A stretch of DNA of 64,000 bases, from NCBI GenBank assembly GCA_050331815.1, contig JBHJGM010000016.1:65653-129652 (forward strand), written 5' to 3'. The position numbers were made by a program, and so were the translations under genes. The first letter of the stretch is position 1; every line of letters starts with the position of its first letter. Below are positions 29,872 to 54,528 of this stretch, in pieces. Below the pieces are notes generated by a model. The model saw only the letters and a list, made by a program, of their open reading frames with translations. It had not been told where the DNA came from and made no database searches. Source of the DNA: Opitutales bacterium (GTDB taxonomy: Bacteria; Verrucomicrobiota; Verrucomicrobiia; Opitutales; JBHJGM01).

Positions 29872-29939
29872 AGGGGATTGCTGATTAAATGTTTAAGCCA
29901 ATAAAGTCCGATTTCGCAGCCCGAGGTTCCCTCGGGAAC

Positions 29940-30899
29940 TCAGGGCAGGCGGCGTCCGCGTCCGGCCACCCACAGCGCGTACCAATCCTCGCGCGAGAGC
30001 TCCAACCCGGCAGCCTGTGCAGCGTTGCGGATGCGCTCCGGCCCGGTCGTGCCAATCAGCGGCTGAAACCGTCCCGGGTGACGCAACAGCCAGCCCACCA
30101 CCACGGCTTCGTTCGGCACGTCGTACTTCGCGGCCATCTCCGTCACCTTTTCCCGCGCACCCTGGATGCGGTCATTGTCGTCAGGAGATTCCCTGCCAGA
30201 GAGCTTTCCCTTGGCCAGCGGCCCCCACGGCTGCGGCGTGATTCCATGCAGCCGACAGTAATCCAGACAGCCGTGCTGCCGCGTCGGATTCACCTCGTCG
30301 ATGTCACGATTGAAATCCACGCCCTCATCCAACATCTGCGTGTGCAGCAAACTCAACTCCACCTGATTGAAGCGCAGCGGCTGCTTCACAAATTGTCGCA
30401 GCAGGGCCATCTGCCCGGCGGTCTGATTACTCACCCCAAAATGGCGCACCTTGCCCGACTGCTCCAGATCCTCAAAAGCGCGGGCCACTTCCTCTGGCTC
30501 CATCAACGCGTCCGGTCGGTGCAGCAGCAGCGAGTCCAGGTACCCGGTCTCCAGTCGTTTCAGGCAGCCTTCGACAGCCTCCACGATATGCGCATGGCTG
30601 AAATCAAAGCCGAATCCCGGTCGGATGCCCACCTTGCCCTGAATCCAGAGCGACTCCCGTTGCAGCCCCAGGTCCGTGACCGCCGCCGCGAAAACCTCCT
30701 CGCTCCGGCCCCGGCAATAAATATCCGCGTGATCGAAGAAGTTGATTCCGCTCTCCACGGCAGCTTCCAGAGCGGCTCGGCCACGCGGCAGCAGCTCGGC
30801 CACGGGCGTCTGACCATCCCAGGTTTTACCAAAGGTCATGCAGCCCAGCCCGATACGGGAAGGCTTCAACCGGCTTTCGAAGTGCTCCAGAAACTGCAT
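29940..30899 (-). CDS. aldo/keto reductase
   Basis: IGLGCMTFG, INFFDHADIY, HRPD and FGVSN are present. The start is set at MQFLEHF (ATG 30899..30897). Confidence 0.9.
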   Translation of the reverse strand: MQFLEHFESRLKPSRIGLGCMTFGKTWDGQTPVAELLPRGRAALEAAVESGINFFDHADIYCRGRSEEVFAAAVTDLGLQRESLWIQGKVGIRPGFGFDFSHAHIVEAVEGCLKRLETGYLDSLLLHRPDALMEPEEVARAFEDLEQSGKVRHFGVSNQTAGQMALLRQFVKQPLRFNQVELSLLHTQMLDEGVDFNRDIDEVNPTRQHGCLDYCRLHGITPQPWGPLAKGKLSGRESPDDNDRIQGAREKVTEMAAKYDVPNEAVVVGWLLRHPGRFQPLIGTTGPERIRNAAQAAGLELSREDWYALWVAGRGRRLP

Positions 30900-30953
30900 C
30901 CCGCAATGCCAAGGCCCAATCATGAGCCAAGGCAAGGCTGGGTTCCAGCTTCG

Positions 30954-33900
30954 CTATTCGTCATCTACCAGTTCCGTTAGCACGAAGATGAACAGCCGGG
31001 GCACGTCGCCCACCGCCTGCACGCTGCGATACTGCACACGCTCGTAGCCCGGGGCCACGCCCGCCTGACTTTGCGCGGGCTCGGTCACCAGCACCGTGCC
31101 GTTGGCATCGCTGGGTCCGCGCCATGCACTGGCATCGTCGAGCACCTCGGTCACGAACGCCGCTCGCGAGACATTCGCATCGTCGTTGCGACGGATGAAG
31201 GTCGCGTAGAGGAAATTGCCGACCACCTCGATAGTCTCCTCCGGAACGGAATTGAAGTCGTCTGGATCGGAGCCTCCGGCATACTCGCCGGCGTTATTCA
31301 CGCCGTCCATGTCGGGGTCAGCGTCCGGGTCGGCATCCGAACCCGACAGGCCATTGTCGAGCGCCCACTGGTCGTAGCCGGCCGGACCACCAAAGATAGA
31401 CGGCACCACCGAGCTGAAGGTCTCCCCAAAACGAAAGTCATCGGCCTCGGCCTGATTCGCGCCAGTTGAGCCATACCATCCGTACCCACGCAGTAGCAAG
31501 TCGACCGCACCGTTGGTGGTCAATTCGGCATCAGGCGTGGCGGGTGGCTGGAAGGTCACCGGCGGATCGACGTAGAGGCGCAGCGTGTCGCTGGTTGCAC
31601 CGAAATCAATCGCTGCCACAACCAGCTGGACCGTGTTGGTCAGGCGCGCCTTCGAGGACGTGACCACCGTCTGGCTGTTGCTCTCGGCCGCGCTGTCGCG
31701 AGCCGTCAACGACCAGAAGCCATCCGTAACGCTGACCGTGGCCAGGCGTTGGTCCGTCAGCTGCGTCTGGTTTCCGCTCGCGAGCACGAGGATGCGCGTG
31801 TTGGGTGCCCCCGGGGCAAAGCGCGCCAGGAAACTCACCCAAAGGGTCGTGCCAGGCTCGCCGATGGCAGTGCTGTCCGCCGTCGAAACCAGCGGCCCAA
31901 ACGCGCTGACATCCAGGAGCCGGCTGGCGGACCGGAACTGGTCGCCGCCCACCACGTATTGCCCGCCCGAGGTGATCAGGTCCGGGTAGCTGAAGGGGGT
32001 GATGTCCGCGATGACAAAGCCCGGGGAGTTAGCCTGCACCACCCATTCACCGGAGAAACCGGTTCCGGTTGTTTGCGCGTCGAGCACGCCGACGGTGCCG
32101 GACTCAAAATCCTCGAAGGCGATCGGATCTTCCGACGGAGGAGGGGGTGGAGGCGGCGGAGACGGATCCATCACCAACGCGCCGAAACTGTCAGCGAAGA
32201 CAAAGTCATCGGCCGCTGCCTGATTGGACCCGGATCCACCAAACCAGCCCAGGCTGCGGAAAAGCATATCGACCGCGCCATTGGTAGTCAGCGTCGCGTC
32301 GGCGGTCAACGGAGCCGTCATATCCAGCGGCGGATCTACGTAGAGTCGCAGCGTGTCGCTGTCCGTGCCAAACTCAACCGCCACAGCGATCAGTTGCACC
32401 GTGTCCACCAGCGCCGGTTTGGTCGATTCGGCAACGGTGCGGCTGTTCGCGTCGCTAGCGCTGTCGCGCGCGCTCAAGGCCCAGTTCCCATTTTGGATAT
32501 CGATCGTGGCCAGGCGCTGCGACGAATTTTGAGTGGTGCTCCCGTCGGCCAAAACGACTACGCGGCGGTCCGTCACGGCGTTCATCCGGATGAGGAAACG
32601 CATCCAGAGCGTCGTACCGGTTTGGCCAATGGCCGTGTCGTCGGCCGAAGCGATCAGCGGTCCAAAGCCCGACACATCCAACAGGTGCGTCGCGGAGCGG
32701 AAACTGTCGCCGCCCACCACGTACTGGCCGCCTGAAGTGGTCAGGCCCGGATACGTCAGCGGGGTATCGTCTTCGATGGCGAAGCCGGGAGAATTGCTGC
32801 CGTTTTGCACATTCCATTCCTCGGCAAAGCCCACGCCCGTGACTTGTTCGTGCAACAATCCGAGCGCGCCCAGCTCAAAGTCGTCCGAGGCAAAAATTTG
32901 GTCGGACGGTGCGGACAACGCGAAACAGTTAAAGATGCGGTAGGCCGGGTCCCCGTCGGGATCGAGTGCGCGCAGCAGGATGGTTTCCGAAGATGCTGCG
33001 GTCGGCGTGCCGCTGATCGTAATCAGTGGCGCGGTGCCGGAGGTCAGGCTCAGACTCAGTCCTTCCGGCAAAAAGCCGCCGATCTGCTCCAGTTCAATCG
33101 AACCGTCGCCGGTGATTTCAATCTCAACAAAATAAGGCGTACCCACGGTGGCCGGCGGCAGCTCGGTCTCGGTCAGAAATTCGGGCACGGTGCCCACCGG
33201 GTCGTCGATGTGGTTGATGCTTGCCTGCTCCTGCACCCAGTCCAGCAGGAAGCGCCACTTTACCGCGTAGCCGGGCACGAGCGGATCGATTGGTTGGTCA
33301 AGGTACTCCAGGTGACCCCAAAAGCCAAACTTGCCCCAAAGCGACACATCGACAAAGGCATCGTGCGTGCGCAGGCCCAACTGCTTGGCCAGCGTCAGGT
33401 GGATCCGGTACATCTCCGCAATGCGCGGATGCCGATTCAGTGCCGCCATAAAGTCGGTGATGCCGTCGTCGTCCGGACTGCCCAAGTCGAGCGCATCGGT
33501 GGGATTGTTCGGGCCGCCCTCATAGGCCACGATCGGCACGTTGAAATCCAGTGCGATGTTGCGATTCTTCTGACCGAATCCACCACCGGCACCGGTTTGG
33601 TCCACCCCGGAGGTGACCGGCGTCAGGCTCAGCAAACGCCGCTCCCACTCGTCAAAGGCCAGGTTGAGGTTCGCCTCGCTCGGGTCGTCTTCGATCCCTT
33701 CGTCACGCACCCAAAACTGCATGCTCTGGCCAAAATACGTCGTGACAGCCAACACGTCCGGCTGGGTCGCCTGTGTGTAGCCGCCGTCACCTACGATGGT
33801 GTTGCCGGATGTCGCCGTCGGCAGCATCGGACCGTAGGCAAACGCCTCCGTCAGAAATCCGCGTGTGTAATTCTCACCGGTTGTATTTGCGCCCGTCCAG

Positions 33901-35120
33901 GCGCTGGCCACGCGCACCAAGCGATCCGTCCCACCGAAGACCTCTTGAAAAATACTCCAGATCTCGCTCGCACGCCGGGCGTTGAATACCCGTCGGTTGA
34001 TACCCATGGTGTTGGCCTGATCTTGCGCCCAATTGCCCTGCGCGAAGTTGCTGCCGTTACTCCAAATCTCGTTGGAATACTCGATGTAGAGCTTCAGCGA
34101 CGGGTCCAGCGGCGCGTAGTACGGGTCGACCTGCGGACTGGTGTAGGGCGTGCCATTGATGTCGGACCCAAACAGAATCAGATTGGCCAGATTGCGCACG
34201 TAGGTGTCCGTGGCCATGTGGGGTAAGCTGATCCACATATTCGTGTTGGTCTCGTTGCTCAGCGCGACCATGTACTCCCAGGCGACACCGGTGCGACGAT
34301 CGCCGCTGAAACCATTGGCCGGCGGACGACTGTTGATTCTGCCGGCCATGAAAACGTGGTTGGGTGGGCGGCGGTCCGACCAGGTCATCTGGGGGCTGGC
34401 GTTAGTGGCGTTCCAGTCCATAAAGCGGATGGTCGCGATTTCCGGATCGTCCAGACGATCGATGTAGACCGGGTTGAAAATCGGCTCGGGGTCTCCGGGT
34501 GCCGGCTCCAGCGACTGATTCTGCGGATCAGCCGGGTCCGGCGCCCAGACTCGGATTTTTGTTACGGGGTCAGTGGGATCCAGTTCCAGAATCTCGATCC
34601 GCATGCCGAGGCCGCTGCCACTAAAATCGTAGACCCGCCGGCCATCGGTGCGCAGGCCCGTGGCAGGGTCCCCGCCCACGTAGCTACCATTCGTGAATTG
34701 CACGTCACCGCGACCTTCCCAGGTAACCACAATGCGTCCTTCCAGCAGATCGTTGCGGTTGCTGCGCATGTTCTGCCCTGGCTGCGCGTAAAAGGTCTCG
34801 TCCGGATTGAGAAAGAGCGGGTAACCGTTGGCGTCGAGCTGGCTGACCGGCGGCCGGTCCCCGGTGTAGGCGCCATCGATCCGCAGCCGCCAGTCTCGTG
34901 ACTCGATAAAGAGCAGGTTGGCAAAAACCGGCGCATTAAAATAAGTAACGCCACCGGCACCGACGCCCATCTCGGGCAGCGTGCTGGGGTCGAAGGCGGC
35001 CGAGGCCGAAGGCGCTGCGAATCCGCTACTGAGCACGAGCCCAAGGGCGCAAGCACCTAAAGCTTTTGGCGCGCCACGCGTACGCAAGAAAACACGGTTG
35101 AGAAAGAGTTCGGAAAGCAT
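30954..35120 (-). CDS. 1388-aa secreted multidomain protein: unassigned TIM-barrel-like (clan GH-A-like) module + Ig-like domain + 2 LamG/concanavalin-like repeats + Asp-rich Ca-binding-type repeat
   Basis: It has a signal peptide. RFMDWNATNASPQ, YIEYSNEIWSNGSNFAQGNWAQDQAN and VAYEGGPN are candidate catalytic Glu motifs. It also has a poly-Pro linker (PSPPPPPPPPSE) and the Asp-rich stretch DADPDADPDMDGVNNAGEY. It is a paralog of 51454..54528. Confidence 0.8.
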   Translation of the reverse strand: MLSELFLNRVFLRTRGAPKALGACALGLVLSSGFAAPSASAAFDPSTLPEMGVGAGGVTYFNAPVFANLLFIESRDWRLRIDGAYTGDRPPVSQLDANGYPLFLNPDETFYAQPGQNMRSNRNDLLEGRIVVTWEGRGDVQFTNGSYVGGDPATGLRTDGRRVYDFSGSGLGMRIEILELDPTDPVTKIRVWAPDPADPQNQSLEPAPGDPEPIFNPVYIDRLDDPEIATIRFMDWNATNASPQMTWSDRRPPNHVFMAGRINSRPPANGFSGDRRTGVAWEYMVALSNETNTNMWISLPHMATDTYVRNLANLILFGSDINGTPYTSPQVDPYYAPLDPSLKLYIEYSNEIWSNGSNFAQGNWAQDQANTMGINRRVFNARRASEIWSIFQEVFGGTDRLVRVASAWTGANTTGENYTRGFLTEAFAYGPMLPTATSGNTIVGDGGYTQATQPDVLAVTTYFGQSMQFWVRDEGIEDDPSEANLNLAFDEWERRLLSLTPVTSGVDQTGAGGGFGQKNRNIALDFNVPIVAYEGGPNNPTDALDLGSPDDDGITDFMAALNRHPRIAEMYRIHLTLAKQLGLRTHDAFVDVSLWGKFGFWGHLEYLDQPIDPLVPGYAVKWRFLLDWVQEQASINHIDDPVGTVPEFLTETELPPATVGTPYFVEIEITGDGSIELEQIGGFLPEGLSLSLTSGTAPLITISGTPTAASSETILLRALDPDGDPAYRIFNCFALSAPSDQIFASDDFELGALGLLHEQVTGVGFAEEWNVQNGSNSPGFAIEDDTPLTYPGLTTSGGQYVVGGDSFRSATHLLDVSGFGPLIASADDTAIGQTGTTLWMRFLIRMNAVTDRRVVVLADGSTTQNSSQRLATIDIQNGNWALSARDSASDANSRTVAESTKPALVDTVQLIAVAVEFGTDSDTLRLYVDPPLDMTAPLTADATLTTNGAVDMLFRSLGWFGGSGSNQAAADDFVFADSFGALVMDPSPPPPPPPPSEDPIAFEDFESGTVGVLDAQTTGTGFSGEWVVQANSPGFVIADITPFSYPDLITSGGQYVVGGDQFRSASRLLDVSAFGPLVSTADSTAIGEPGTTLWVSFLARFAPGAPNTRILVLASGNQTQLTDQRLATVSVTDGFWSLTARDSAAESNSQTVVTSSKARLTNTVQLVVAAIDFGATSDTLRLYVDPPVTFQPPATPDAELTTNGAVDLLLRGYGWYGSTGANQAEADDFRFGETFSSVVPSIFGGPAGYDQWALDNGLSGSDADPDADPDMDGVNNAGEYAGGSDPDDFNSVPEETIEVVGNFLYATFIRRNDDANVSRAAFVTEVLDDASAWRGPSDANGTVLVTEPAQSQAGVAPGYERVQYRSVQAVGDVPRLFIFVLTELVDDE
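31404..32114 (-). repeat. internal coding repeat, unit B (second LamG-like domain)
   Basis: EDFESGTVGVLDAQTTGTGFSGEW...LRLYVDPP...EADDFRFGETFSSVV is colinear with unit A. The similarity is also visible at the DNA level, for example GACGTAGAGGCGCAGCGTGTCGCTG versus TACGTAGAGTCGCAGCGTGTCGCTG. Confidence 0.85.
32172..32885 (-). repeat. internal coding repeat, unit A (first LamG-like domain)
   Basis: DDFELGALGLLHEQVTGVGFAEEW...LRLYVDPP...AADDFVFADSFGALV. It is separated from unit B by the poly-Pro linker. Confidence 0.85.
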
Positions 35121-35587
35121 CGAGCAAGCCTGGGTTAGGGTGTTTCTGAGTGAACTTGAACATGTATCACGTCACCCACGCTGGCAACACCCGCAAAGTT
35201 TCAGCACCTTCAAAGTCGGCATCAACGTAACTTATGAGTGACGCTTCCTCGGGCGTCACCCAGTACTTATAAATCACAAAACCGCCGGCCCGCGGCGAGC
35301 AGCCAAACCGCCAATTTAGGCAGTAGAAATCCACGAGCAAAACGCGCAAATGCGTCCCTGCGAGAGCAGTCAAGGGTCATTACGATTTAAAAAGAGAGCG
35401 TTAGCGGAGAGATTTCCGTCGAATGAATTACATACAGCAGAAAAACGCCGGGATTGCCCCCGAATCTGCAGTTGTTAAGTCAAGAATCTGTCGACAGCAT
35501 CCGACTTTCCCCAGCACCGATTTTTCGCTAAATCAGCCGGCCTCATCTCGCTGATTAGACCTGCTGACACCACACCGACCTGACGCC

Positions 35588-36343
35588 ATGTTCCTCAACT
35601 ACCGGGAAGTCTTTCAAAAACGCGGGGCCGCCTACCATGAAGCCATGCAACGCTGGCCCAAGGCCCGTGGCAACGAACTCCAAACCATCATCGACTGGGC
35701 CCAGCCTCGGCCCGAAGACCTGGTGCTGGATCTGCCCAGCGGCGGCGGATATCTGCGACCGCTTCTGCCCGAAGGCGCGCGGCTGATCGCCATCGATGAG
35801 TCGGAAAACTTCCTGCACTCCGGCCCGCATGCCGGCAGCGTCGAAGCGCGCTGCGCGCCGCTGGACGCCACGGGCCTGCCTGCAAACCACGCCAATGTGG
35901 CCATCAGCCTTGCCGGGCTGCACCACGTACCGGACCGTGTGACCGTCTTTGCCGAAGTCTTCCGTGTGCTCAAACCGGGGGGCGTCTTTTGTGTCGCTGA
36001 TGCGCTCGCTGGCGGCGCAGTCGCGCGCTTTCTGGATGGTTTTATCGACCAGCACAATTCATCCGGACACGAGGGCCGCTACCTCACGCAGGCCTCGTCC
36101 GAGGAACTTCGCCGAGCCGGCTTTGAGGTCGAGCGTGCCGAATCCGTGGACTATCCCTGGGTGTTCCCCGACCGCGAGGCTCTTGGCGGCTACTGCAAGC
36201 TGCTGTTCGGCCTCGATCTCGCCGGCGACGAGGCTTCCGTGGCAGAAGGCATCGCCGAGTGGCTCCCCGTCCACGAACGCGACGGCCAAACCCACCTGGA
36301 CTGGAGCCTCTACTTCCTGCGCGCCCGTAAACCGGCGGCTTGA
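35588..36343 (+). CDS. class I SAM-dependent methyltransferase
   Basis: Motif I is VLDLPSGGGY. The post-I and later motifs include LHHVPD and LKPGGVFCV. Confidence 0.85.
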   Translation: MFLNYREVFQKRGAAYHEAMQRWPKARGNELQTIIDWAQPRPEDLVLDLPSGGGYLRPLLPEGARLIAIDESENFLHSGPHAGSVEARCAPLDATGLPANHANVAISLAGLHHVPDRVTVFAEVFRVLKPGGVFCVADALAGGAVARFLDGFIDQHNSSGHEGRYLTQASSEELRRAGFEVERAESVDYPWVFPDREALGGYCKLLFGLDLAGDEASVAEGIAEWLPVHERDGQTHLDWSLYFLRARKPAA

Positions 36344-36350
36344 GGCATCC

Positions 36351-37580
36351 CTACGGCTGACCCTTGCCGAGCAGACCCAGATCCAGCCCCGCTTTTTCCG
36401 CGTAAGCGATGTTCTTCGTAGCCAGATCGACCCGCTGCTTGACGCACCCGGCCGAGGTGAGCGGATCCTCTGGGGTATTTTTCACGTAATCGACCAGCTT
36501 CTCGACAGTGGTGGTCGCCACATGACTACGCGTGTCCGAGGAGGCGTAGTAGATAAATACTTCACCGCTGTCGCGCGTGATCACACCGTTGGTGAACACC
36601 ACGTTGGAGACATCGCCGATGCGCTCTTCGCCCATCGGTGCGATCAGGTGGCCGCCCGGGCGATGCGTCTGCTTCCAGGGCTCGTCGAGCGCGCACATAA
36701 ATGCATAAACCACGTAGCGCAGCCCCGCCGCGCAATTGCGCACACCATGGGCGATGTGCAGCCAGCCCTCGTCCGTCTTGATCGGCGCAGCGCCAGCCCC
36801 GTTCTTCACTTCCTTCATCGTGTGGTAAATCCTTTCGTCGACGATGTGCTCGCCCATGACCTCGGCTCCGTCGATTTTCTCCGAAAACCCGAAGCCAATG
36901 CCGCCTCCGGAACCGGTCGTGGTGAAGCCATCCTGGGGACGGGTGTAAAAGGCGTATTTGCCGTCGATCAGCTCTGGCAACAGGACCGCGTTGCGCTGCT
37001 GCGGCGAGGAGGTTTTCAAATCCGGCAGGCGGTCCCAATGGACCAGGTCCTTGGTGCGGGCGATGCCGCACTGGGCCATGGCGGCAGAGGTATCGCTGGC
37101 GGGCGCATCGGGGTCTTTGCGTTCGGTGCAAAAGATGCCGTAAATCCAGCCGTCGGCATGCTGAACGAGCCGCATGTCGTACACGTTGACGTCCGGGTCG
37201 TCCGTCTCCGGCATGACAACCGGAAAATCCCAAAAGCGAAATCCGTCGACCCCGTTGTCACTCTCGGCCACCGCGAAGAAGCTCTTCCGGTCAACGCCTT
37301 CGACCCGCACCATCATCAGGTATTTGCCGTCGTGGTATATCGCGCCCGGATTGAACGCCGCATTCATGCCCATGCGCTCGAGCAGGTGCGGGTTGCGCTC
37401 CGGGTCAAAGTCGTAGCACCAGTGCGGCGGCACGGATTCATGAGTCAGTACCGGGTGCTGATAGTACGTAAGCACCCCGTTGAGCGACCGCGCTTCGTCA
37501 ACCGGGTTATTGCGGCCCAGCACGGACTCGTAGTGGGCGTAGATGGCTTTCAGGCGGGCGTCGTAATCGGAAGCAGGCAT
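36351..37580 (-). CDS. GH130 family beta-mannoside phosphorylase (4-O-beta-D-mannosyl-D-glucose phosphorylase-like)
   Basis: It has no signal peptide. [57 protein letters not shown] and IYYASSDTR are typical of five-bladed GH130 enzymes. Confidence 0.8.
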
Positions 37581-37689
37581 GCCCTAAGTCCATGCCACGC
37601 CCCCAGCCTCGCAAGCAAGCGCGGAATCAGTTCGTTGGCTCGGGCTGGCGGCAGCGTTGGGGACACTTCGCCCACATCGCCCGTCGAAG

Positions 37690-37856
37690 GTGTGGCAGGG
37701 AACGTCCAGGTCCTCCGCCAGCGCCACAAACTCACGGTCGTAGCTGGCCAATCCCGAGCGCAGCGACGACCTTGGTATCCGCAACAAGCACATTTATTCG
37801 CACCCTTCTTCCACTGCGGCCAAAATTTCATCCATCGAAGGCGACACGCCGGCAGC
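37690..37856 (-). pseudogene. decayed PIN-domain (VapC/FitB-like) toxin remnant
   Basis: It lies directly downstream of the RHH antitoxin. Two different frames encode VLVADTKVVAALGIGQ and SYDREFVALAEDLDVP. Both resemble the C-terminal D..IAA.A...LvT.D.dF part of PIN toxins. The N-terminal ~80 residues are missing and a frameshift is required. Confidence 0.35.
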
Positions 37857-38048
37857 CTAGTGCCGCTCAATCGAGGCGTCGATCCGTGCCAGCAGCGCTT
37901 GTTCTTCCTCCTGAGTGCGGCGCCGTACCTGCGACGCCTGCGAGAGCATCCGGATTACTTCCTGGCTCAGCGAGCGCTGATTCCGCTTGGCCCGCTCCTT
38001 GAGGCGCTGGTGCACTGCATCCGGCAACCCTTTGATTGTGATATTCAT
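37857..38048 (-). CDS. ribbon-helix-helix antitoxin (FitA/VapB/Arc-like)
   Basis: MNITIKGLPDAVHQRLKERAKRNQRSLSQEVIRML is a typical RHH antitoxin N-terminus. The start is set at ATG 38048..38046. Confidence 0.7.
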   Translation of the reverse strand: MNITIKGLPDAVHQRLKERAKRNQRSLSQEVIRMLSQASQVRRRTQEEEQALLARIDASIERH

Positions 38049-38125
38049 GGAACCAAATTGCCACCGTAGCGGTTTCACGTTAAGCGGACCGCTGGCCGCG
38101 TAAATTTCTTAATGCTTGTAGCGCT

Positions 38126-39493
38126 TTAGATGTCTTTCGGCAGCGCAAAGCAATCCCCGGTGTCGGTGATCCACTGCGCGAGCCGATCCTGCAACGCCCG
38201 GCGCTTCTGCCGGTAGGCCGAGTTATGCGCCAGATTCATCTGCTCGTACGGATCGTCATTAAGGTTAAACAGCATCAGCGGCTGGTGCTCAATGCAGACG
38301 TATTTCCAGCCGTCGGTCGTCACCACCCCACGCCAGGCGCGGTCGAGACTGTGCGCGTGCCCGGTCGGCACAACCAGTTGGATGAACGCGCTGTCCGGAT
38401 CCGGCTGGCTAGGCTCGCACCCCCAGACGCGGTGGTGCGCGTAGTCCGTGCCCTCCATCCACTCCGGGATCGGCAGTCCACACAGGCCCAGCGAGGTCGG
38501 CGCGTAATCGACGTGGTTAAACAGGATCGCATTGTCCGCGTGGCTGCGCTTACCGCTGTAGTAGGTGTCGCCCATGCCGTACAGCACGCAGGGCACCCGC
38601 AGCGATTCCTCCCACGGCGAGGTCTTGCGAAACTGCCCGTGACTGCCGTGCATGTCGCCATGGTCCGAGAAAAACAGCACGTGCGTGTCCTCGTCCAGCC
38701 CGGCTTCCTTCAGCGCGTCGTTGATGCGCCCGACGTTCCAGTCGAGGTTCTCGATCATCGCGTAGTAGCCGGCCAATTCCCGCGCGGCTTGCTGACGCAC
38801 CCAATCAATCTCGGGTACGTTGGCCCGAAACTCCACCGAGGCCGCATTGTGCCCCTCCATAAACTCCGCCGGAGCCCCGTAAGGGTCGTGCGGCGGCTGC
38901 ACGCTGAGCACCGCAAAGAACGGCTCCGCCTCGGGATTGTTTTTCAACGCCTCGCCCCGGTCGCGGAGGTACTCCAGGAGCAAGTTGGTCAGCTCGTCGG
39001 TCTCGTATCCAGGAAGCCGATACATCTCGACCTCTGCTTCCTCCATGTGCCCGTGCACCCAGCAGTCCCATGGCGCGTTGTTGTTCTCATAGCCGACCCA
39101 GTCGGTAAATCCGCCGCGTCGCTCCCAGGGGATCGTGTGCGTGCCTCCGCGCCCATCACGCTCGTGCCAGCCGTCCACATGCCACTTGCCAAAATAGCTC
39201 GTGCGGTAGCCGTGGGCGTTGAAGGCGGTCGCCACCGTCGGCAGCGCCGGGTCCAGTGGGTACTCGTGCCCGGGCACTGCGTTGTGCGGATAACGCCCAC
39301 TCAGTAGCGAACCGCGAAACGGACAGCACAGCGGGCAGCCGCCCACCGCACCGCCAAAGACCACGCCGGTCTCGGCCTTGGTGTCGAGGTTGGGCGTGTA
39401 GACATTCGGATCACCCGCGTAGCCCAGAGCCTGGGCGCGGTGCTGATCGCCAAAAATCCACAAAACATTGGGACGACGCGATGAAGTCGGCAT
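38126..39493 (-). CDS. Cys-type sulfatase (arylsulfatase A family), no signal peptide
   Basis: PNVLWIFGDQH is present, and the FGly motif is CCPFRGSLLSGRY (C-x-P-x-R). The metal-binding motif DHGD is also present. The start is set at MPTSSRRPN (ATG 39493..39491). Confidence 0.9.
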   Translation of the reverse strand: MPTSSRRPNVLWIFGDQHRAQALGYAGDPNVYTPNLDTKAETGVVFGGAVGGCPLCCPFRGSLLSGRYPHNAVPGHEYPLDPALPTVATAFNAHGYRTSYFGKWHVDGWHERDGRGGTHTIPWERRGGFTDWVGYENNNAPWDCWVHGHMEEAEVEMYRLPGYETDELTNLLLEYLRDRGEALKNNPEAEPFFAVLSVQPPHDPYGAPAEFMEGHNAASVEFRANVPEIDWVRQQAARELAGYYAMIENLDWNVGRINDALKEAGLDEDTHVLFFSDHGDMHGSHGQFRKTSPWEESLRVPCVLYGMGDTYYSGKRSHADNAILFNHVDYAPTSLGLCGLPIPEWMEGTDYAHHRVWGCEPSQPDPDSAFIQLVVPTGHAHSLDRAWRGVVTTDGWKYVCIEHQPLMLFNLNDDPYEQMNLAHNSAYRQKRRALQDRLAQWITDTGDCFALPKDI

Positions 39494-39595
39494 ACCGGCA
39501 TCGTCCACACCTGCCTCGCTTACGAAAAGGAAAATCGCACCCACCACTTAAGCCCGAGCGTGACAGCCCGAACCGTGAGCCCCATTCTGATTCTT

Positions 39596-40981
39596 ATGTC
39601 CAGTGCGGCCCCTCCCAACATCCTGTTTCTCACCTGGCATGATGCCGGACGCTGGTTCAACTGCTACGGCGTCGACACCGTAGACACCCCCGGCATCGAC
39701 CGCATCGCCGCCGAGGGCTGCCGTTTCACCCAGGCCCATTCGGCCTGCGCGATCTGCTCGCCTTCGCGCGCTGCCATGATGACCGGGCGCACCTGCCAGG
39801 CCGCCGGGGTCATGAGCCTCACCAACAACGTTTTTTCCAACCGCATCCATCCCTCCATTCGACACCTGGCCCGTCTGCTCAAGGAGGATCACGGTTACCG
39901 CACCGCGCTCTTTGGCGTGCAGCACGAGGCCGCGCACGAACATATCTGGCGGGTGCAGCAATTTGACGAGGCGCACCGTACCGACCCGTGGCCCACGGCC
40001 GATGTCTCCTGCGACGCGCTCATCGACTGGCTCGAGCAGCGAAAGACTGACACCGCACCCTGGTACGCGCAGATCGGATTCTTCGAAGGTCACCTGGGCG
40101 CGTTTTACAACGCACAGACGAATCCCGCGTATCCACAAGAGGACTACACCGAGAAAGGCCTGCATCTGCCGCCTTACCTGGCCGATGACGCACCCGGTCG
40201 CGCGACCGTGGCCAACCTCCAGGGCCTGCTGACCCGCGCCGGACGCGCCTTCGACCGCGTACTCGACGCCCTCAAGGCCAATGGCCAGGAGTCTAACACC
40301 CTGGTAGTGGTCTGCGTCGACCACGGCGTCGGGCTCGCCCGGGCCAAGACAACCTGCTACGACCCCGGCACTGCGGTCGGCTGGCTCATGCGCCTGCCCG
40401 GACGAGTCCCCACCAACCACACGGTCGAAAATCTGACCACGCACATCGACGTGTTTCCAACCGTCCTCGAACTCGCCGGCCATCCCGTCCCCGACGCCAC
40501 TCAGGGCCTCAGCTTTGCCCCGCACGCCTGCGGCCAGGCCGACCACGAACAAAACAAGGCCATCTTTGCCCACATGGTGGAAACCATCCGCTCCGTCCGC
40601 ACCCAGCGCTGGAAGCTGATCCGCAACTTCCAACCCTCCAATCGCGGCAAACTCTTCCCGGCCCGCGCGGGCTGGCTCTGGCGCTCCCGTCCTGATGAAA
40701 GACCCCCGGCCACCGATCCTAAAAACGCGCCTCACCTCGAACTGTACGATCTCCAGAAGGCTCCCGACGAGCACCAGAACCTCGCCAGCGACCCACAACA
40801 CCACGCCACCCTCGCGGAACTCGATGCCCGCCTCTGGGCCTTTTTATACGACGAAGGCGACCCGCTGATCCATCAGCCGGTGCGCACCCAGTACGACGTC
40901 GAGACCCGCGCCTCGCTCGAGGCTTTTTGTAAAAAAACAAGTCGAGTGCTTACCCAAGCCATCGGCCCGCGAGCATCGTAG
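39596..40981 (+). CDS. Cys-type sulfatase, no signal peptide
   Basis: PNILFLTWHD, CSPSRAAMMTGR and VCVDHG are present. The start is set at MSSAAPPN (ATG 39596). Confidence 0.9.
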   Translation: MSSAAPPNILFLTWHDAGRWFNCYGVDTVDTPGIDRIAAEGCRFTQAHSACAICSPSRAAMMTGRTCQAAGVMSLTNNVFSNRIHPSIRHLARLLKEDHGYRTALFGVQHEAAHEHIWRVQQFDEAHRTDPWPTADVSCDALIDWLEQRKTDTAPWYAQIGFFEGHLGAFYNAQTNPAYPQEDYTEKGLHLPPYLADDAPGRATVANLQGLLTRAGRAFDRVLDALKANGQESNTLVVVCVDHGVGLARAKTTCYDPGTAVGWLMRLPGRVPTNHTVENLTTHIDVFPTVLELAGHPVPDATQGLSFAPHACGQADHEQNKAIFAHMVETIRSVRTQRWKLIRNFQPSNRGKLFPARAGWLWRSRPDERPPATDPKNAPHLELYDLQKAPDEHQNLASDPQHHATLAELDARLWAFLYDEGDPLIHQPVRTQYDVETRASLEAFCKKTSRVLTQAIGPRAS

Positions 40982-42412: not shown

Positions 42413-43063
42413 TCAGGCCTTCTTGCGGCGCAACAGTACGACCGCCGTCAGCAGCCCGATACCCACCAGACCGTAGGTCGAGGGCTCGGGAACGGCCGTG
42501 ATCTGCCCGCGGATGAGGCCCGCCGGATCGTTCTCACCGTGCAGGTTGAAGTAGAACTCCGTGTCCGCGCCCTGGGGCACGCTCAGGAAGTCCTGCGCGA
42601 TGTCGTTGATCGACTCGTTGGTCGGATCGCCACCGTCAAACGAACCGAAAACGGTGGTGGTGTTGTCGCTGTTGAGCACGATCTGCGCTTCGGGATCCTG
42701 GTCGGGGCCGAAGATACCCAGCGAGATCGGGCCGTTGGTGCCGCGTTCGCCGCGGTGGATGTGCAGCACCACGTCGTCGCGCACGATCTCCGAACCGCCA
42801 TTGTCCAGACCTTCGCCCGGAAACGCGTTGTCGAAGTTCACCGACGCGTCGAACACCAGTTCATAGTGCAACACGAAGCCCTCGGCTTCGGAACCGCTGA
42901 GAAACAGCGAACCGAATCCGGTGCCCGTTGAGTTGGTCTGCCCGCCCGGAGCGACTTCCTGCGCCGAGTCCAGAAAGGCCTGGAAACTCTGCGCCGTCAG
43001 CACCGACGGAACAACTAGAAGCGCTCCTAAGGTAACGCTTTGGAGGGTCTTTAACTTACTCAT
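42413..43063 (-). CDS. CHRD domain protein with a PEP-CTERM sorting signal
   Basis: It has a signal peptide. CHRD-like blocks are present (LDSAQEVAP...GTGFGSL; LHIHRGERGTNGPI; NLHGENDPAGLIRGQI). The C-terminal VPEPSTYGLVGIGLLTAVVLLRRKKA is a PEP-CTERM anchor. Confidence 0.8.
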   Translation of the reverse strand: MSKLKTLQSVTLGALLVVPSVLTAQSFQAFLDSAQEVAPGGQTNSTGTGFGSLFLSGSEAEGFVLHYELVFDASVNFDNAFPGEGLDNGGSEIVRDDVVLHIHRGERGTNGPISLGIFGPDQDPEAQIVLNSDNTTTVFGSFDGGDPTNESINDIAQDFLSVPQGADTEFYFNLHGENDPAGLIRGQITAVPEPSTYGLVGIGLLTAVVLLRRKKA

Positions 43064-43283
43064 GGTTGTGAGGTGTTTCTTGTTTCAAGCGCCACGATGA
43101 ATTCACAGCGCGACTACAGACCATAAGCACACCGCGCCCGCACACCCAGACGAAACAATCCGGCAACCTGCGGACAAGGATTTCCCTGACCCCAGCTCGG
43201 GGATAATCCCCTAAGAAACCTTCAGGATTGCGCGATTGTGAGATTAAGGCCCAGTGTGTTGATAAGAATCGCTCATTTTGCAC

Positions 43284-44639
43284 ATGCCCGAAAAGCCCCT
43301 CAATATCCTCTACTTTGTCGTACACGACCTCGGCAAACATCTCGGTTGCTACAACGGCGGACTCATCCACTCGCCCCGTCTCGACGCCTTCGCCCGCGAG
43401 TCCTTCCGCTTTCACAACGCCTTCACCAACGCCGCCTGCTGTAGCCCCTCGCGCGGCTGCGCCATGACGGGCCAGTACTCCCACGTCAACGGCCAGATTG
43501 GGCTCGCGCACATGGGCTGGTCCCTCCCGCAGTCCGCCAAAACCATTGTCGATTACTTCAACGAGGCCGGGCGCACCACGGTCCACTGCGGACTCAATCA
43601 CGAACGCCACGCCGGCGAAAATCACTACCAGCACGACTTCGAGGAACACTGGGACGACTGGGACGCCGCCAACGCCGTAACCAAGGCCCTCACCTGGCTC
43701 GAAAAACGCCCGGCGGATGCGGACCCCTTTTACCTCAACATCGGCACCCACGATGTGCACGCCTCGCGCTTCACCAAGGAACCCGCCGCCTATGCCCCCT
43801 ACAAGCCCGCGCCGGAAGACGTCTTCGTACCGCCCTGGCTACACGACACCCCGCAAATCCGGGCCTTTCTGGCCAACTTCCAAAGCGCCATCGGCTACCT
43901 CGATGTACAGTTCGGGCGGCTTCTGGACGGCCTCGACCGCCTGGCCTTGCGCGAGACGACCCTCGTCGTCTTTACCACCGCCCACGGCATCGCCGTGCCC
44001 CCGCGCCTTGCGAAGGGGACCTGCTACGACCGCGGCATGGAGATTGCGCTGCTGGCCCGCATGCCCGGCCCAAGCGCGCCCGGCAGTGACGTCCATCACC
44101 TCATCCAGAATATCGACTTCACGCCCACCTTCCTCGAATTGACCGGCGCGCCCGTCCCCGATTCCATCAACGGACGCTCCTTCGCCCCGCTCCTGCAAGG
44201 GCAGCCGTATCAGCCGCACGAATACATTTTTGTCGAGCGCAACTGCCACGGCGAACACAACCCCGAAGGCCCGGGCTTTCGCGACGTTTACGATCCCGTG
44301 CGCTCGGTCCGCACAAGCGACTTCCACCTGATCCGCCACTGCCACCCGGAACTGAAGGACCGCCCCCTGCGCCGCCACGAAGCCCCGCCGCCGCCGGACG
44401 CCAACGAGCGCACTTGGCCGACTTCCGGCGTCCCCCGCGCCGAAACGGAACTCTACTACATCGCGCAGGATCCCCTCGAGCTCTTCGATGTGGTGAACCA
44501 GCCCGAGTACGCTCCCGTGCGTGACCGCCTTTCCACGCTCATCGACACGTGGATGCGCGACACCGACGACCTCGCGCTGAGTAGCACCGCGCCTACGCCC
44601 CCCGAAAAGCCCGGCTGGGGCCCCTGGGAAAATCTTTGA
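43284..44639 (+). CDS. Cys-type sulfatase, no signal peptide
   Basis: LNILYFVVHDLG and CCSPSRGCAMTGQY (C-x-P-x-R) are present. The ATG at 43284 is preferred over the TTG at 43278. Confidence 0.9.
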   Translation: MPEKPLNILYFVVHDLGKHLGCYNGGLIHSPRLDAFARESFRFHNAFTNAACCSPSRGCAMTGQYSHVNGQIGLAHMGWSLPQSAKTIVDYFNEAGRTTVHCGLNHERHAGENHYQHDFEEHWDDWDAANAVTKALTWLEKRPADADPFYLNIGTHDVHASRFTKEPAAYAPYKPAPEDVFVPPWLHDTPQIRAFLANFQSAIGYLDVQFGRLLDGLDRLALRETTLVVFTTAHGIAVPPRLAKGTCYDRGMEIALLARMPGPSAPGSDVHHLIQNIDFTPTFLELTGAPVPDSINGRSFAPLLQGQPYQPHEYIFVERNCHGEHNPEGPGFRDVYDPVRSVRTSDFHLIRHCHPELKDRPLRRHEAPPPPDANERTWPTSGVPRAETELYYIAQDPLELFDVVNQPEYAPVRDRLSTLIDTWMRDTDDLALSSTAPTPPEKPGWGPWENL

Positions 44640-50912: not shown

Positions 50913-51453
50913 ACGGAAAGATGATTAAGGTGTTTGAGTATCCGATAATGCAGCGCGGAGCACCCTGCAAGCAATCGCCATTGCTCGGGACACCGCTCAG
51001 CCGGCGAAATCGAACTGCCTTCGCGCGGGTGCTAAAACACGCGGTTGAAACACGCCGCCAATGAATCTGGAAAGTCCCTATGGAGGGATGAAACAGGTGT
51101 ACTGTCATCTACTTAAGTGTACGTATCGCTAATTAATAATGACAGATCATTTCCGTTATTCGCTTGACATGACAAGTAGCTGAAGTGTGATCTGTTTCAG
51201 CCATTAGCAACTGCTATGGAACGGCCCCTACCTCCTTGATGGAGGTTTCTATCTCGTAATCTCAACTCCACGCTTACCCTCGGCATGCGCCGGGTCTTTT
51301 CCGTTTTCAGGCTTCGGCCTCAACGGATACGGCTCCGCCAGTGCTGTTAGTTTTTGCTACTTCGTAATTGGCAAACGCTGCTGTCTCCCTGAACCCCGCT
51401 TTCGCTGATCCTCGGCGAAATCAAAGACATAAACGCAACTACTAAGTCTCAAA

Positions 51454-54400
51454 ATGTATCCTACTAAGTCATATCCCACCTTCATGGATTGGCGGTTGTC
51501 CGTCCGGTCCCTGTCCGCTTCCCGCCTGCGCGTGCTGCGCTGGCTGTTCCTGTTGCTGCTACCCTCGATGCTTCAGGGCGCGGACACGCCTGTCTCTTAC
51601 GGCCTGGGCGGCTACGCCTACTATGATGCGCCTCGCTTCGGCAACTTCCTCTGGAATGAAAGCCGCAACTGGCGCGACCAGGCCACCAACCAGACCATCC
51701 ACCGCTTCAACCCGGATGGTTCCGACAACGCGCAGATCAACAGCCTCGGCTTCCCCACCTTTCTGAACTCGGGGCAGGTTCTGGTCGCCAAGCCCGGACA
51801 AAACGCCGTGCCTCAAACCCGCCAGCTCTTTGAGGGGCAGTTCGTACTCGAATGGCAGGGTGCCGCCGACATTCGCGTCGTGGGCCATTCTTTCGTTGCC
51901 TCCAAATCCAACACCGGCTCCACCGGCGTGAAAAACAACGGACGGCGCGTCTACAAGGTCAACACCAGCAACGCCAACGGCGTCGAGGTACAGATTCACG
52001 CGCTCGGGGGCAGCCAGCTCACCGGCATTCAGTTGTGGATGCCCGACCCCTCCGACCCGCAGAACAAATCCCTCGAAGACAAGACCTTCCACCCGGCCTT
52101 CTTGGACCTCATCGCCGACCGCAACTGGCGCGCCCTGCGTTTCATGGACTGGGGCAAGACCAACGCCAGCCCGCAGCGCAACTGGTCGGACCGACGGCGG
52201 CCCGCCGACTGCTTCGCCAGCGGCATCATCAACCGGCGCAGCCCTGCCGAGGGCCTCGTCTGGTACGTCAATGGCGCCGGGCAAAACGTCTACTTCGCAG
52301 GCGACCGCCGCACCGGCATCGCCTACGAGCACATGATCGCCCTGTGCAACCAGACCGCTCGCGACATGTGGGTCTGCGTGCCGCACCTGGCCACCGACGA
52401 CTACATCAACAAACTCTGCAATCTCATCGCCTACGGCTCCGACGGCAGCACCCCCTACACCAGCCCGCAGGCCAACCCGGTCTATCCTCCGCTCAACGCC
52501 AACCGTAAGGTCTACTTCGAGTTCTCCAACGAAATCTGGAGCAACGGAGGCAACTTTCCGCAAGGCAACTGGGCTCAGGACCAGGCCAACCAGCAGGGCA
52601 TTTCCAAGCCTCAGTTCAACGCGCGGCAGTTCTCGAAGATCTGGAACCGGCTCGAAGCGCGCATCGGTGCCAGCCGGGTCATCCGCACCGCCGCCATCTG
52701 GACCGGCAGCGAAAACTACACCCGCGCCTTCATCGACGAGTTCTACAACAACTCCAGCCTGCTCAAGCCCGAGAACATCTCACCCACGACCTACTACGGC
52801 CAGGGCATTCAATTCTGGGTGCACGACAACTTCCCGAATCTGCCCGGCAGCCCCAACGACCCGTATTGGAGCAGCGCGCAGTTTGCAGCCGACAAGCAAG
52901 CCACCTTCGACCAGTGGAATTTCTTCGTGCTGTCGGGTACCAAGTACGGCAACGCTGGTAACACCGGCCCGGACAACATCGGTAACTTCCCCGCCTACGT
53001 CACTGACGTCGCCCAGGAGCGCAACCTCGACATGATCGCCTACGAAGGCGGGCCCTCGCTCTACACCGATGCCCTCGATGTCGGCGGCAGCGCCGATGAC
53101 GGCATCACCACCTTCGTCATGGATCTGAACCGCGAGCCGCGCTTTGCCGATATCTACGACATCGTGCTCAACCAGTCCTTCGAGCGTGGACTCAAGGCTC
53201 ACTCGCTCTTCACCGACGTCAGCAAGTGGGGCAAATTCGGGCAATGGGGGCACAACGAATACCTCGGCCAGGACCTGAACACCTCGGTCAAGTGGCAGCT
53301 GATTCGCCAGGCCTTCGACGAGCACAACAGCTTCACCCACATCTTCGACACCCCCCAGGGCAGCCGCCCGAGCTTCTCGACGCCCGCCGTCCTGCCCGGC
53401 GTCGAAGTCGGTAACAGCGTCAATCAGACCATCGCTATCTCAGGCGGCAACGGCACGCGCACGGTCGACCTCATCGGCAAGTCGCTGGTCGACGGCCTGA
53501 GCTTCAACCTTAACCAACTGCGCCTCTCCGGCACGCCCACCGAAAGCGGCTCCAGTTTCGTTTACCTGCGCGTGCACGACAGCGATGGCGACGTGAACTG
53601 GCGCAACTTCAGCCTCCTGTCGATTCAGCGCTCGGCCTATCCCAAAAAGACGATCGACTTCGAGAACCAGACGGTCAGCACCCACGGCGTAGGCGAGCCC
53701 GAGCCCATGACCTTTGGCGCCTACGCGTTCACCTCCAACAACGGCAGCTCCCTCTACATCAACGCGCCCTCGGGTGGCCCCTGGCCCGCCGGCTGGCCCA
53801 GCAAGGTCCTGCACGGAAGAAACTGGGGCACCTCGCTCTACCTGGCGCGCACCGACGGCAACCCCTTCGACCTCACCGAGTTCGATGCCGGGACCAATGC
53901 CGGCGAAAGCCTCGAACTCACCGTCACCTACGCGGATGGCAGCAGCGAGATCGCCATCTACGATCTGCCCAAGCAAGTCGGCCTGACCCTCATCGAGCCT
54001 GACTTCGTCGGCATCGTCGAGGCGCGCTTCCAGTTCAAACAGAATAGCGGTGGCCAGGGTGACAATCGCTACGGCGCCATCGACAACGTCGTGCTCAATG
54101 GCATCGCCCCCGGCGGCGGCGGCAGCGGCGGCGGAGGCAGCAACGAAGGCCCCCGTTACCAGGCCGAAAACGCCACCGTCACCGGAGCGCAGGTAAAAAC
54201 CGGCGGCAACGCCAATGGCGGCAGCTACGTCGACTTCCAAAGCGCCGGCGACCGCATCGAGTTCACCTCCGTCGACATGGCCTCCGCCGGCAATGTCACG
54301 GTGACCATGCGCTACGCCAACGGCCGCCAATGGGGCTCGGGTACGGACGTATACGTCAACGGCTCCTTCGCCAAAACCGTCTATGACTCACCCACCGGCA

Positions 54401-54528
54401 GCTGGACCACCTGGCAAAACAAAACCTTCTCGCTCAACCTGAGCGCGGGGACCAACGTGATTCGCCTCCAGGCCCGCTACAGCCACAGCCCGAACATCGA
54501 TTACCTCGATGTGCCCGGAGGCAGCTGA
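51454..54528 (+). CDS. 1024-aa secreted protein: same unassigned TIM-barrel-like module as 30954..35120 + Ig-like domain + beta-sandwich + Gly/Ser linker + CBM6/CBM35-like module
   Basis: It has a signal peptide. RFMDWGKTNASPQ, YFEFSNEIWSNGGNFPQGNWAQDQAN and IAYEGGPS are present. The linker is GGGGSGGGGS. The C-terminal YQAENATVTGAQV...GSYVDF...NVIRLQA...PNIDYLDV is CBM6/35-like. Confidence 0.8.
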   Translation: MYPTKSYPTFMDWRLSVRSLSASRLRVLRWLFLLLLPSMLQGADTPVSYGLGGYAYYDAPRFGNFLWNESRNWRDQATNQTIHRFNPDGSDNAQINSLGFPTFLNSGQVLVAKPGQNAVPQTRQLFEGQFVLEWQGAADIRVVGHSFVASKSNTGSTGVKNNGRRVYKVNTSNANGVEVQIHALGGSQLTGIQLWMPDPSDPQNKSLEDKTFHPAFLDLIADRNWRALRFMDWGKTNASPQRNWSDRRRPADCFASGIINRRSPAEGLVWYVNGAGQNVYFAGDRRTGIAYEHMIALCNQTARDMWVCVPHLATDDYINKLCNLIAYGSDGSTPYTSPQANPVYPPLNANRKVYFEFSNEIWSNGGNFPQGNWAQDQANQQGISKPQFNARQFSKIWNRLEARIGASRVIRTAAIWTGSENYTRAFIDEFYNNSSLLKPENISPTTYYGQGIQFWVHDNFPNLPGSPNDPYWSSAQFAADKQATFDQWNFFVLSGTKYGNAGNTGPDNIGNFPAYVTDVAQERNLDMIAYEGGPSLYTDALDVGGSADDGITTFVMDLNREPRFADIYDIVLNQSFERGLKAHSLFTDVSKWGKFGQWGHNEYLGQDLNTSVKWQLIRQAFDEHNSFTHIFDTPQGSRPSFSTPAVLPGVEVGNSVNQTIAISGGNGTRTVDLIGKSLVDGLSFNLNQLRLSGTPTESGSSFVYLRVHDSDGDVNWRNFSLLSIQRSAYPKKTIDFENQTVSTHGVGEPEPMTFGAYAFTSNNGSSLYINAPSGGPWPAGWPSKVLHGRNWGTSLYLARTDGNPFDLTEFDAGTNAGESLELTVTYADGSSEIAIYDLPKQVGLTLIEPDFVGIVEARFQFKQNSGGQGDNRYGAIDNVVLNGIAPGGGGSGGGGSNEGPRYQAENATVTGAQVKTGGNANGGSYVDFQSAGDRIEFTSVDMASAGNVTVTMRYANGRQWGSGTDVYVNGSFAKTVYDSPTGSWTTWQNKTFSLNLSAGTNVIRLQARYSHSPNIDYLDVPGGS

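Follow-up and report, generated by a model that had tools for sequence, protein, structure and literature searches.

What might be the function of two large proteins that are encoded on opposite strands of one stretch of bacterial DNA, share their N-terminal region and end in unrelated C-terminal regions? How are they related to each other? These questions are raised by 64,000 nucleotides from an Opitutales bacterium (Verrucomicrobiota; NCBI GenBank assembly GCA_050331815.1, contig JBHJGM010000016.1, positions 65,653 to 129,652 of the forward strand), hereafter called the window. Open reading frame (ORF) A (51454..54528, + strand) encodes a putative multi-modular glycoside hydrolase (GH) of 1024 amino acids (aa), and ORF B (30954..35120, − strand) encodes a paralog of 1388 aa. 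A sequence-only reading had taken them for two copies of one uncharacterised catalytic module, lying within 20 kb and tailored divergently for substrate targeting. The analysis described here points to A and B being, probably, secreted retaining glycosidases, in which the conserved core would be catalytic and the tails would set targeting or anchoring. The family to which they belong is a good candidate for a new GH family, with a conventional predicted fold and chemistry.

Two Paralogs with a Common N-Terminal Region

A and B are joined by a single colinear BLASTP alignment with 290/720 identities (40%), 57% positives and an E-value of 3e-160. It pairs aa 50-724 of A with aa 54-735 of B (32916..34961, − strand) and covers the N-terminal core, consisting of a predicted beta-sandwich and barrel, together with an Ig-like domain. 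Thus the colinear paralogy proposed from the sequence is borne out over 720 columns, and the similarity is not patchy. The identical blocks quoted in support of it are all found in both proteins apart from one slip, PDPSDPQN in A being PDPADPQN in B (PDPSDPQNKSLE and PDPADPQNQSLE, respectively), and the Ig-like domain with the motif SGTPT, claimed to be common to both, falls within the aligned region. Past the core and the Ig-like domain, the C-terminal regions have no significant similarity in BLASTP, again as claimed, and no third copy was found in the window by tblastn.

The start annotated by NCBI for A is 51484, 10 codons later, which yields a protein of 1014 aa (P0001) named 'MAG: carbohydrate-binding protein [Opitutales bacterium]', MAG standing for metagenome-assembled genome. 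The hydrophobic N-terminus of A, up to ...LLLLPSMLQGA, looks by eye like a signal peptide, which suggests that the protein is secreted.

Predicted Fold and Active Site of the Core

The core of A was modeled by AlphaFold (AF2) as residues 43-644 (model mdf03bc7798a6; model position equals protein numbering minus 42), with a mean predicted local distance difference test (pLDDT) score of 89.1 and a predicted template modeling score (pTM) of 0.91. In the model, an N-terminal beta-sandwich (about aa 47-200; 51592..52053, + strand; strands at model 5-153) is followed by a predicted (beta/alpha)8 barrel (about aa 215-632; 52096..53349, + strand) with eight alternating strand/helix units. When this model was compared by Foldseek with PDB entries to April 2026, only TIM-barrel glycosidases were returned, mostly of clan GH-A. 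The GH51 entries 3ug3, 2y2w, 6d25 and 1pz3 rank first (E 1e-6 to 1e-4, probability 1.00) and are followed by GH164, GH10, GH5, GH1 and GH2; no chain in this set is closer to the core than a template modeling (TM) score of 0.4.

Sequence comparison is silent where the predicted structure speaks. The core (about aa 44-640) of A and B has no match in Pfam, NCBIfam or PDB sequences, and it remains unmatched when 36 aligned family members are compared with Pfam and NCBIfam at E<=10, GH51-related Pfam models included. More divergent subfamily members have no catalytic Pfam domain either, and a family profile run against PDB sequences matches through the Ig-like domain alone. A transitive link to GH5 through a neighboring family of 941-aa GH5-like proteins was also considered; hhalign gives it a probability of 0.35%, and that family is unrelated to the family of A. 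In this sense the module is indeed uncharacterised, as the sequence-only reading had it.

Which residues would perform catalysis? Conservation was assessed in 221 non-identical catalytic modules, beyond the smaller alignment of 36 sequences. Fifteen positions are conserved in every module: R229, W244, E292, N299, W306, P310, E356, N359, E360 and W362, and further along Y447, Y530, E531, G532 and G596. H311 (97%) and W598 (98%) are nearly invariant, and the beta-sandwich has invariant residues of its own (G128, W134, G136, D139, R165 and Y167). On the model, R229 is placed at strand 1 and H311 after strand 3. Asn359-Glu360 (52528..52533, + strand), in the motif FSNEIW, directly follows the strand at model 311-315, taken as strand 4. 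Y447 lies on strand 6, Glu531 (53044..53046, + strand), in the motif AYEGGP, in the strand at model 489-492 (after 484-486), taken as strand 7, and W598 after strand 8. In retaining enzymes of clan GH-A the acid/base Glu follows an Asn on beta-4 and the nucleophile Glu is on beta-7, and the classical constellation of GH5 and clan GH-A is Arg, His, Asn-Glu, Tyr, Glu and Trp. Since both the predicted fold and this catalytic signature match, the core is assigned to clan GH-A, and double displacement with retention of configuration is therefore the predicted reaction. The chemistry predicted from the AF2 model, the Foldseek matches and the conservation across the modules is not mysterious, and to this extent the impression of an enigmatic enzyme given by the sequence-only reading does not stand.

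An outline of the proposed mechanism is as follows: the N-terminal beta-sandwich would be packed on a clan GH-A-type (beta/alpha)8 barrel, where strand 4 ends in Asn359 and Glu360. The general acid/base would be Glu360, and Glu531 on strand 7 would be the nucleophile of a double-displacement reaction. The Ig-like domain after the core would be a spacer, beyond which paralog-specific modules would provide targeting or anchoring.

The closest known systems, the GH51 alpha-L-arabinofuranosidases of clan GH-A, resemble the modeled core in the (beta/alpha)8 barrel, in the Asn-Glu after strand 4 and the Glu on strand 7, in the Arg, His, Tyr and Trp at strands 1, 3, 6 and 8, and in having an accessory beta-sandwich. 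They differ from it in several respects. No sequence or profile similarity is detectable between them (10-13% identity, TM 0.30-0.40). The jelly-roll of GH51 is C-terminal to the barrel, whereas the beta-sandwich of A and B is N-terminal (model 1-160) and an Ig-like domain comes after the barrel. Unlike in GH51, strands 6 and 7 of the core are also separated by a long helical insertion (model 428-480).

Might the barrel not be hydrolytic at all? It could instead be a transglycosylase, as retaining GH-A enzymes are able to act as such, or a cell-surface scaffold that is catalytically silent and either binds carbohydrate or serves as an adhesin. The Ig-like domains, repeats and anchoring-type C-termini do recall surface adhesins, and the Ig-like family He_PIG is frequent in giant adhesin-like proteins. 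However, the Asn-Glu and Glu pair and about 15 further residues that are absolutely conserved in 221 divergent sequences argue for catalysis, and the carbohydrate-binding modules (CBMs) and dockerins found in the family are typical add-ons of degradative enzymes. We consider a non-hydrolytic role very improbable and retain that of a retaining hydrolase, to which we infer the core to be suited.

C-Terminal Modules of A and B

The tail of A starts with the Ig-like domain, which resembles He_PIG and SraP domains (aa 640-725; 53371..53628, + strand) and is all-beta in an AF2 model that covers A 640-1024 and draws on eight sequences (pLDDT 83.9). Its match to He_PIG (PF05345) is weak in A itself (17.6 bits at 642-715, below the cut-off of 24), but He_PIG is matched in 9 of the 36 family members at E<=10, with a best value of 7.3e-09, and the family profile matches the Ig-like repeats of SraP (4m03) at 1.2e-8. 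By BLAST, the domain is present in 118 of 122 family proteins. It is followed by a second all-beta domain (aa 729-884; 53638..54105, + strand; strands at model 92-243), which has no Pfam or PDB sequence match and is confined to the clade of A (P0002-P0006, P0008, P0079 and L004). A Gly-rich linker, GGGGSGGGGS (aa 886-898; 54109..54147, + strand), is disordered in the model (pLDDT <50 at model 247-259).

The C-terminal module of A (aa 899-1024; 54148..54525, + strand) is a CBM35/CBM6 module, so that the CBM6/35-like module noted from the sequence is genuine. At aa 901-1020 it scores above the Pfam cut-offs for both CBM_6 (48.4 bits against 28.9, E 1.4e-12) and CBM_35 (30.8 bits against 28, E 4.1e-07), and it is the only part of A to pass a Pfam cut-off. 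A phmmer search of A against PDB sequences likewise returns CBM35/CBM6 modules only, CBM35 structures among them at 5e-14 to 1e-12. By Foldseek, the module superimposes on 2w1w/2w47, 4qb2 and 2vzr/2vzp with TMt 0.82-0.88, a root-mean-square deviation of 1.6-2.4 Å and 31-38% identity. Its nearest solved relatives, 2w47, 2vzr and 4qb2, are binders of glucuronate or delta-4,5-galacturonic acid (GalA).

Conserved binding-site regions A, with an aromatic Trp, and C, with an Asn, have been described for CBM35 (PMC9843283). In HMMER alignments with 2w47 both residues are kept: the stacking Trp in TGSWTTW of A, opposite TGAWTTW, and the basal Asn in SPNIDYL, opposite GPNVDYL. An RYANG motif is conserved as well. 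The closest known modules are the uronate-binding Rhe-CBM35 (2w47), Chi-CBM35 (2vzr) and Xyn30D-CBM35 (4qb2), with which the module of A has the stacking Trp, the basal Asn and RYANG in common. At a further position, however, YVDFQS of A stands opposite YVNYHN of 2w47, with Gln in place of His, and therefore uronate specificity is not assured. Another difference concerns the partner: those three modules are appended to GH30, carbohydrate esterase (CE) or GH2 enzymes, whereas that of A is appended to an unclassified core. In the proposed mechanism the beta-domain and the flexible Gly linker would lead to the CBM35, which would keep the enzyme attached to its polysaccharide; the epitope that it binds would most likely contain uronic acid.

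The nearest relative of A, encoded at locus L004 in another Opitutales MAG (JBHJGQ010000004.1, 5740..9414, + strand), is 52% identical to it in the core. The protein of L004 has two tandem CBM35 copies, 60-64% identical to the single CBM of A, and CBM copy number therefore varies within the clade.

The tail of B is built differently. Two tandem repeats of about 245 aa (aa 738-983 and 1000-1239; 31404..32909, − strand) are 57% identical to each other and are separated by a PPPPPPPP linker. Two copies are present in B and in its ortholog from the Opitutales MAG L016, and one in the ortholog from L011; a large protein search found no homologs of the repeat beyond the orthologs. There is no meaningful match in Pfam or PDB, and a Pfam match to DPBB_PEX6 was discarded as implausible and probably spurious. 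Our guess from the sequence would be a jelly-roll fold of the lectin or LamG-like type.

The repeats are followed by a C-terminal module (aa 1240-1388; 30957..31403, − strand) in which an Asp-rich, calcium-binding-like stretch (DADPDADPDMDG...GSDPDD) precedes a terminal domain of about 100 aa. The module has a weak match, below the cut-off, to the NCBIfam entry 'Amuc_1099 family pilus-like system protein' (8e-05). It is common to B and to the closest relatives of A (P0002, P0006, P0010 and P0011), with 27-37% identity, and recurs at the C-termini of members from different clades. Possibly, it is a module by which verrucomicrobial proteins are sorted or anchored to the surface. In B, then, the two lineage-specific repeats and the Asp-rich terminal module would probably serve surface attachment.

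A Large Protein Family, Mostly from Uncultured Bacteria

How widespread is the core? Searched with the catalytic region alone, the family comprises at least 923 clusters at 90% identity (E<=1e-3). Larger counts from an exhaustive search of representatives, 18813 (E<=1e-3), 9729 (1e-10) and 2391 (1e-30), were rejected as a measure of family size, since repeat proteins with He_PIG inflate them. A scan seeded with motifs, covering 185,579 genomes with one for each species, gave 475 loci. The best 80 of these are nearly all from MAGs of Verrucomicrobiota, Kiritimatiellae, Planctomycetota, Acidobacteriota/Thermoanaerobaculia, Sumerlaeia and Myxococcota and a few Gammaproteobacteria; a single isolate, Nitrincola sp. 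A-D6, is among them. Several MAGs have two or three copies.

The modules appended at the C-terminus differ widely across the family and include CBM35/6, CBM96, Golvesin_C, dockerin, the sorting domain of the type IX secretion system (T9SS; Por_Secre_tail), FG-GAP and the Asp-rich module. This variety is consistent with targeting to different substrates or locations, and the diversification of tails proposed in the sequence-only reading is upheld at the level of the family. Multi-modular polysaccharidases of Bacteroidota and of the Planctomycetes-Verrucomicrobia-Chlamydiae (PVC) group similarly reuse one core with interchangeable C-terminal modules. Unlike those enzymes, which are encoded in clusters resembling polysaccharide utilization loci (PULs), members of the A/B family are encoded by mostly stand-alone genes. 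No conserved gene partner was found across three long contigs and 83 loci; among the genes flanking the 83 loci, LacI regulators occur at 10/83 and sulfatases at 5/83.

Is the family already known under another name? The core might belong to a recent CAZy GH family that lies outside Pfam 2025, NCBIfam 20 and PDB, A and B being then ordinary members with a known substrate. Many CAZy families above about GH150 have no Pfam model, and the comparison of the core with known families covered Pfam, NCBIfam, PDB and the literature. On the other hand, every homolog that carries a name is a 'hypothetical protein', except for A itself (P0001), a 'carbohydrate-binding protein'; the PDB holds no chain nearer to the core than the limit given above; the best 80 loci are nearly all from uncultured organisms; and full-text literature searches found no published description of a matching new GH family or of its motifs. 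We regard membership in such a family as rather unlikely, though it deserves serious consideration, and continue with A and B as members of a candidate new family.

Deep Paralogy of A and B

Did the two genes arise from each other in this genome? They are 16 kb apart and have the core and the Ig-like domain in common, as would be expected if a recent local duplication had been followed by a swap of C-terminal modules. The relatives of the two proteins speak strongly against this. B is only the 51st among the matches of A, and A the 66th among those of B, so that, for each, dozens of proteins of other organisms are closer than its neighbor is. In a neighbor-joining tree the last node common to both spans 206 of the 221 sequences, the two clades meeting only near the root. 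B has syntenic orthologs in L016 and L011, where no A-type gene is adjacent to it, the A-like gene of that MAG (L004) being on another contig; A has no syntenic ortholog. A recent local duplication is thus effectively refuted, and with it the idea of two copies diversified on the spot. By these sequence comparisons, A and B are deep paralogs whose tails have been exchanged independently.

Genomic Context of A and B

Both genes were described in the sequence-only reading as lying inside a sulfatase-rich region. This was overstated: the window has three sulfatase genes (38126..39547, − strand; 39560..40981, + strand; 43278..44639, + strand), which all lie on the side of B and adjoin its locus, between 38.1 and 44.6 kb, whereas A lies among housekeeping genes. 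The B locus (27046..40981) has the order sulfatase, sulfatase, GH130, methyltransferase, B, aldo/keto reductase and a 941-aa protein, and this block is syntenic in the Opitutales MAGs L016 and L011 with 72-85% DNA identity. Its context includes three sulfatases, a GH130 enzyme and a GH5-like protein. Speculatively, the combination of GH130, a GH5-mannanase-like protein and sulfatases hints at a mannan-type substrate, possibly sulfated, at the B locus.

The 941-aa protein (27046..29871, − strand), directly downstream of B and the aldo/keto reductase, has no Pfam match. It has 461 homologs, all 'hypothetical', mostly from the PVC group and including the cultured Phycisphaera mikurensis and Paludisphaera. 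Around an invariant QNE motif, the profile of its family has weak matches to five GH5 mannanases (best 5.8e-05), and the protein has the appearance of another putative clan GH-A enzyme that has escaped annotation. The gene at 42413..43063 (− strand), between sulfatase genes, encodes a small protein that combines a CHRD domain with a PEP-CTERM sorting motif.

A is a stand-alone gene, whose neighbors encode an M28 peptidase and a DinB-type polymerase. Between the last sulfatase gene and A are genes for a LysM protein, two NUDIX proteins, an oxidoreductase, a DeoR regulator, a Wza-like exporter and the M28 peptidase; downstream of A are the DinB-type polymerase gene, an aldehyde dehydrogenase gene and others. 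The 541 bp upstream of A (50913..51453) had been called an AT-richer leader. The GC content is indeed lower there (45-55%, compared with 59-70% in the flanking coding sequence), but the segment is intergenic and shared by the M28 peptidase gene (− strand) and ORF A (+ strand), which diverge from it. Rfam has no match to it, and the frequency of promoter-like and terminator-like sites upstream of A does not exceed that in shuffled sequence; over the scanned region 5 terminator-like sites were found against 4.2 expected in shuffled controls. At 51230..51294 (+ strand) the region has two stem-loops followed by T-runs, a terminator-like arrangement.

Possible Substrate and Strength of the Functional Assignment

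On what would A act? Because its CBM35 is of the uronate type, some relatives carry CBM96 and sulfatases are encoded near B and near some relatives, an anionic glycan, that is, a uronate-containing and/or sulfated polysaccharide, can be proposed as the target of A; we hold this proposal only tentatively and think it doubtful as it stands. The founding member of CBM96 binds alginate (PMC9971899). A more precise proposal, diatom glucuronomannan, was prompted by the GH130 enzyme, the sulfatases and the uronate-type CBM, and was rejected: it is too specific for a family that abounds in lineages of soil and freshwater.

Several observations weigh against the assignment of A and B as glycosidases of this kind and should be set beside the evidence for it. 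The likeness of the core to solved glycosidases is remote in Foldseek, with TM 0.30-0.40 and 10-13% identity, and no sequence-profile link from the core to any GH family was obtained with Pfam, NCBIfam, PDB or hhalign. The placement of Glu360 and Glu531 as a catalytic pair depends on the strands of the predicted model, and the catalytic signature leaves two invariant acids, E292 and E356, unexplained. As for uronate binding, CBM35 specificity varies. The uronate-specific subgroup is marked by calcium-dependent binding of glucuronic acid (GlcA) or delta-4,5-GalA, by an Asn in region B and by a His in region D2. The argument for A draws on nearest-neighbor CBMs, and the positions of regions B, D2 and E in its module are uncertain. 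Finally, gene neighborhoods are not conserved in the family, and context therefore says little.

Implications

What would these proteins mean for the bacteria that encode them? A far-reaching proposal is that the core, with its beta-sandwich N-terminal to the barrel, founds a new CAZy family of clan GH-A. Such a family would be spread widely among uncultured members of Verrucomicrobiota, Kiritimatiellia, Planctomycetota, Acidobacteriota, Sumerlaeia and Myxococcota. The substrate of its members would be an anionic polysaccharide, uronic-acid-containing and/or sulfated, that no currently known hydrolase attacks, with lineage-specific tails directing the paralogs to different substrates or cell-surface locations. 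Taken as a whole, this proposal is plausible, but we would give it somewhat less than an even chance. At most it would add a new family or a new specificity, not a new principle.

Genomes of the PVC group and of Acidobacteriota are rich in secreted proteins labeled 'hypothetical', which limits the prediction of glycan degradation from them. The family of A and B is a practical target in this respect, being large and unannotated and having a sharply conserved putative active site as well as carbohydrate-binding tails. Characterization of one member would give names to many genes now labeled hypothetical, and it could reveal an activity, so far missing, on soil and ocean polysaccharides that are rich in uronate or sulfated.

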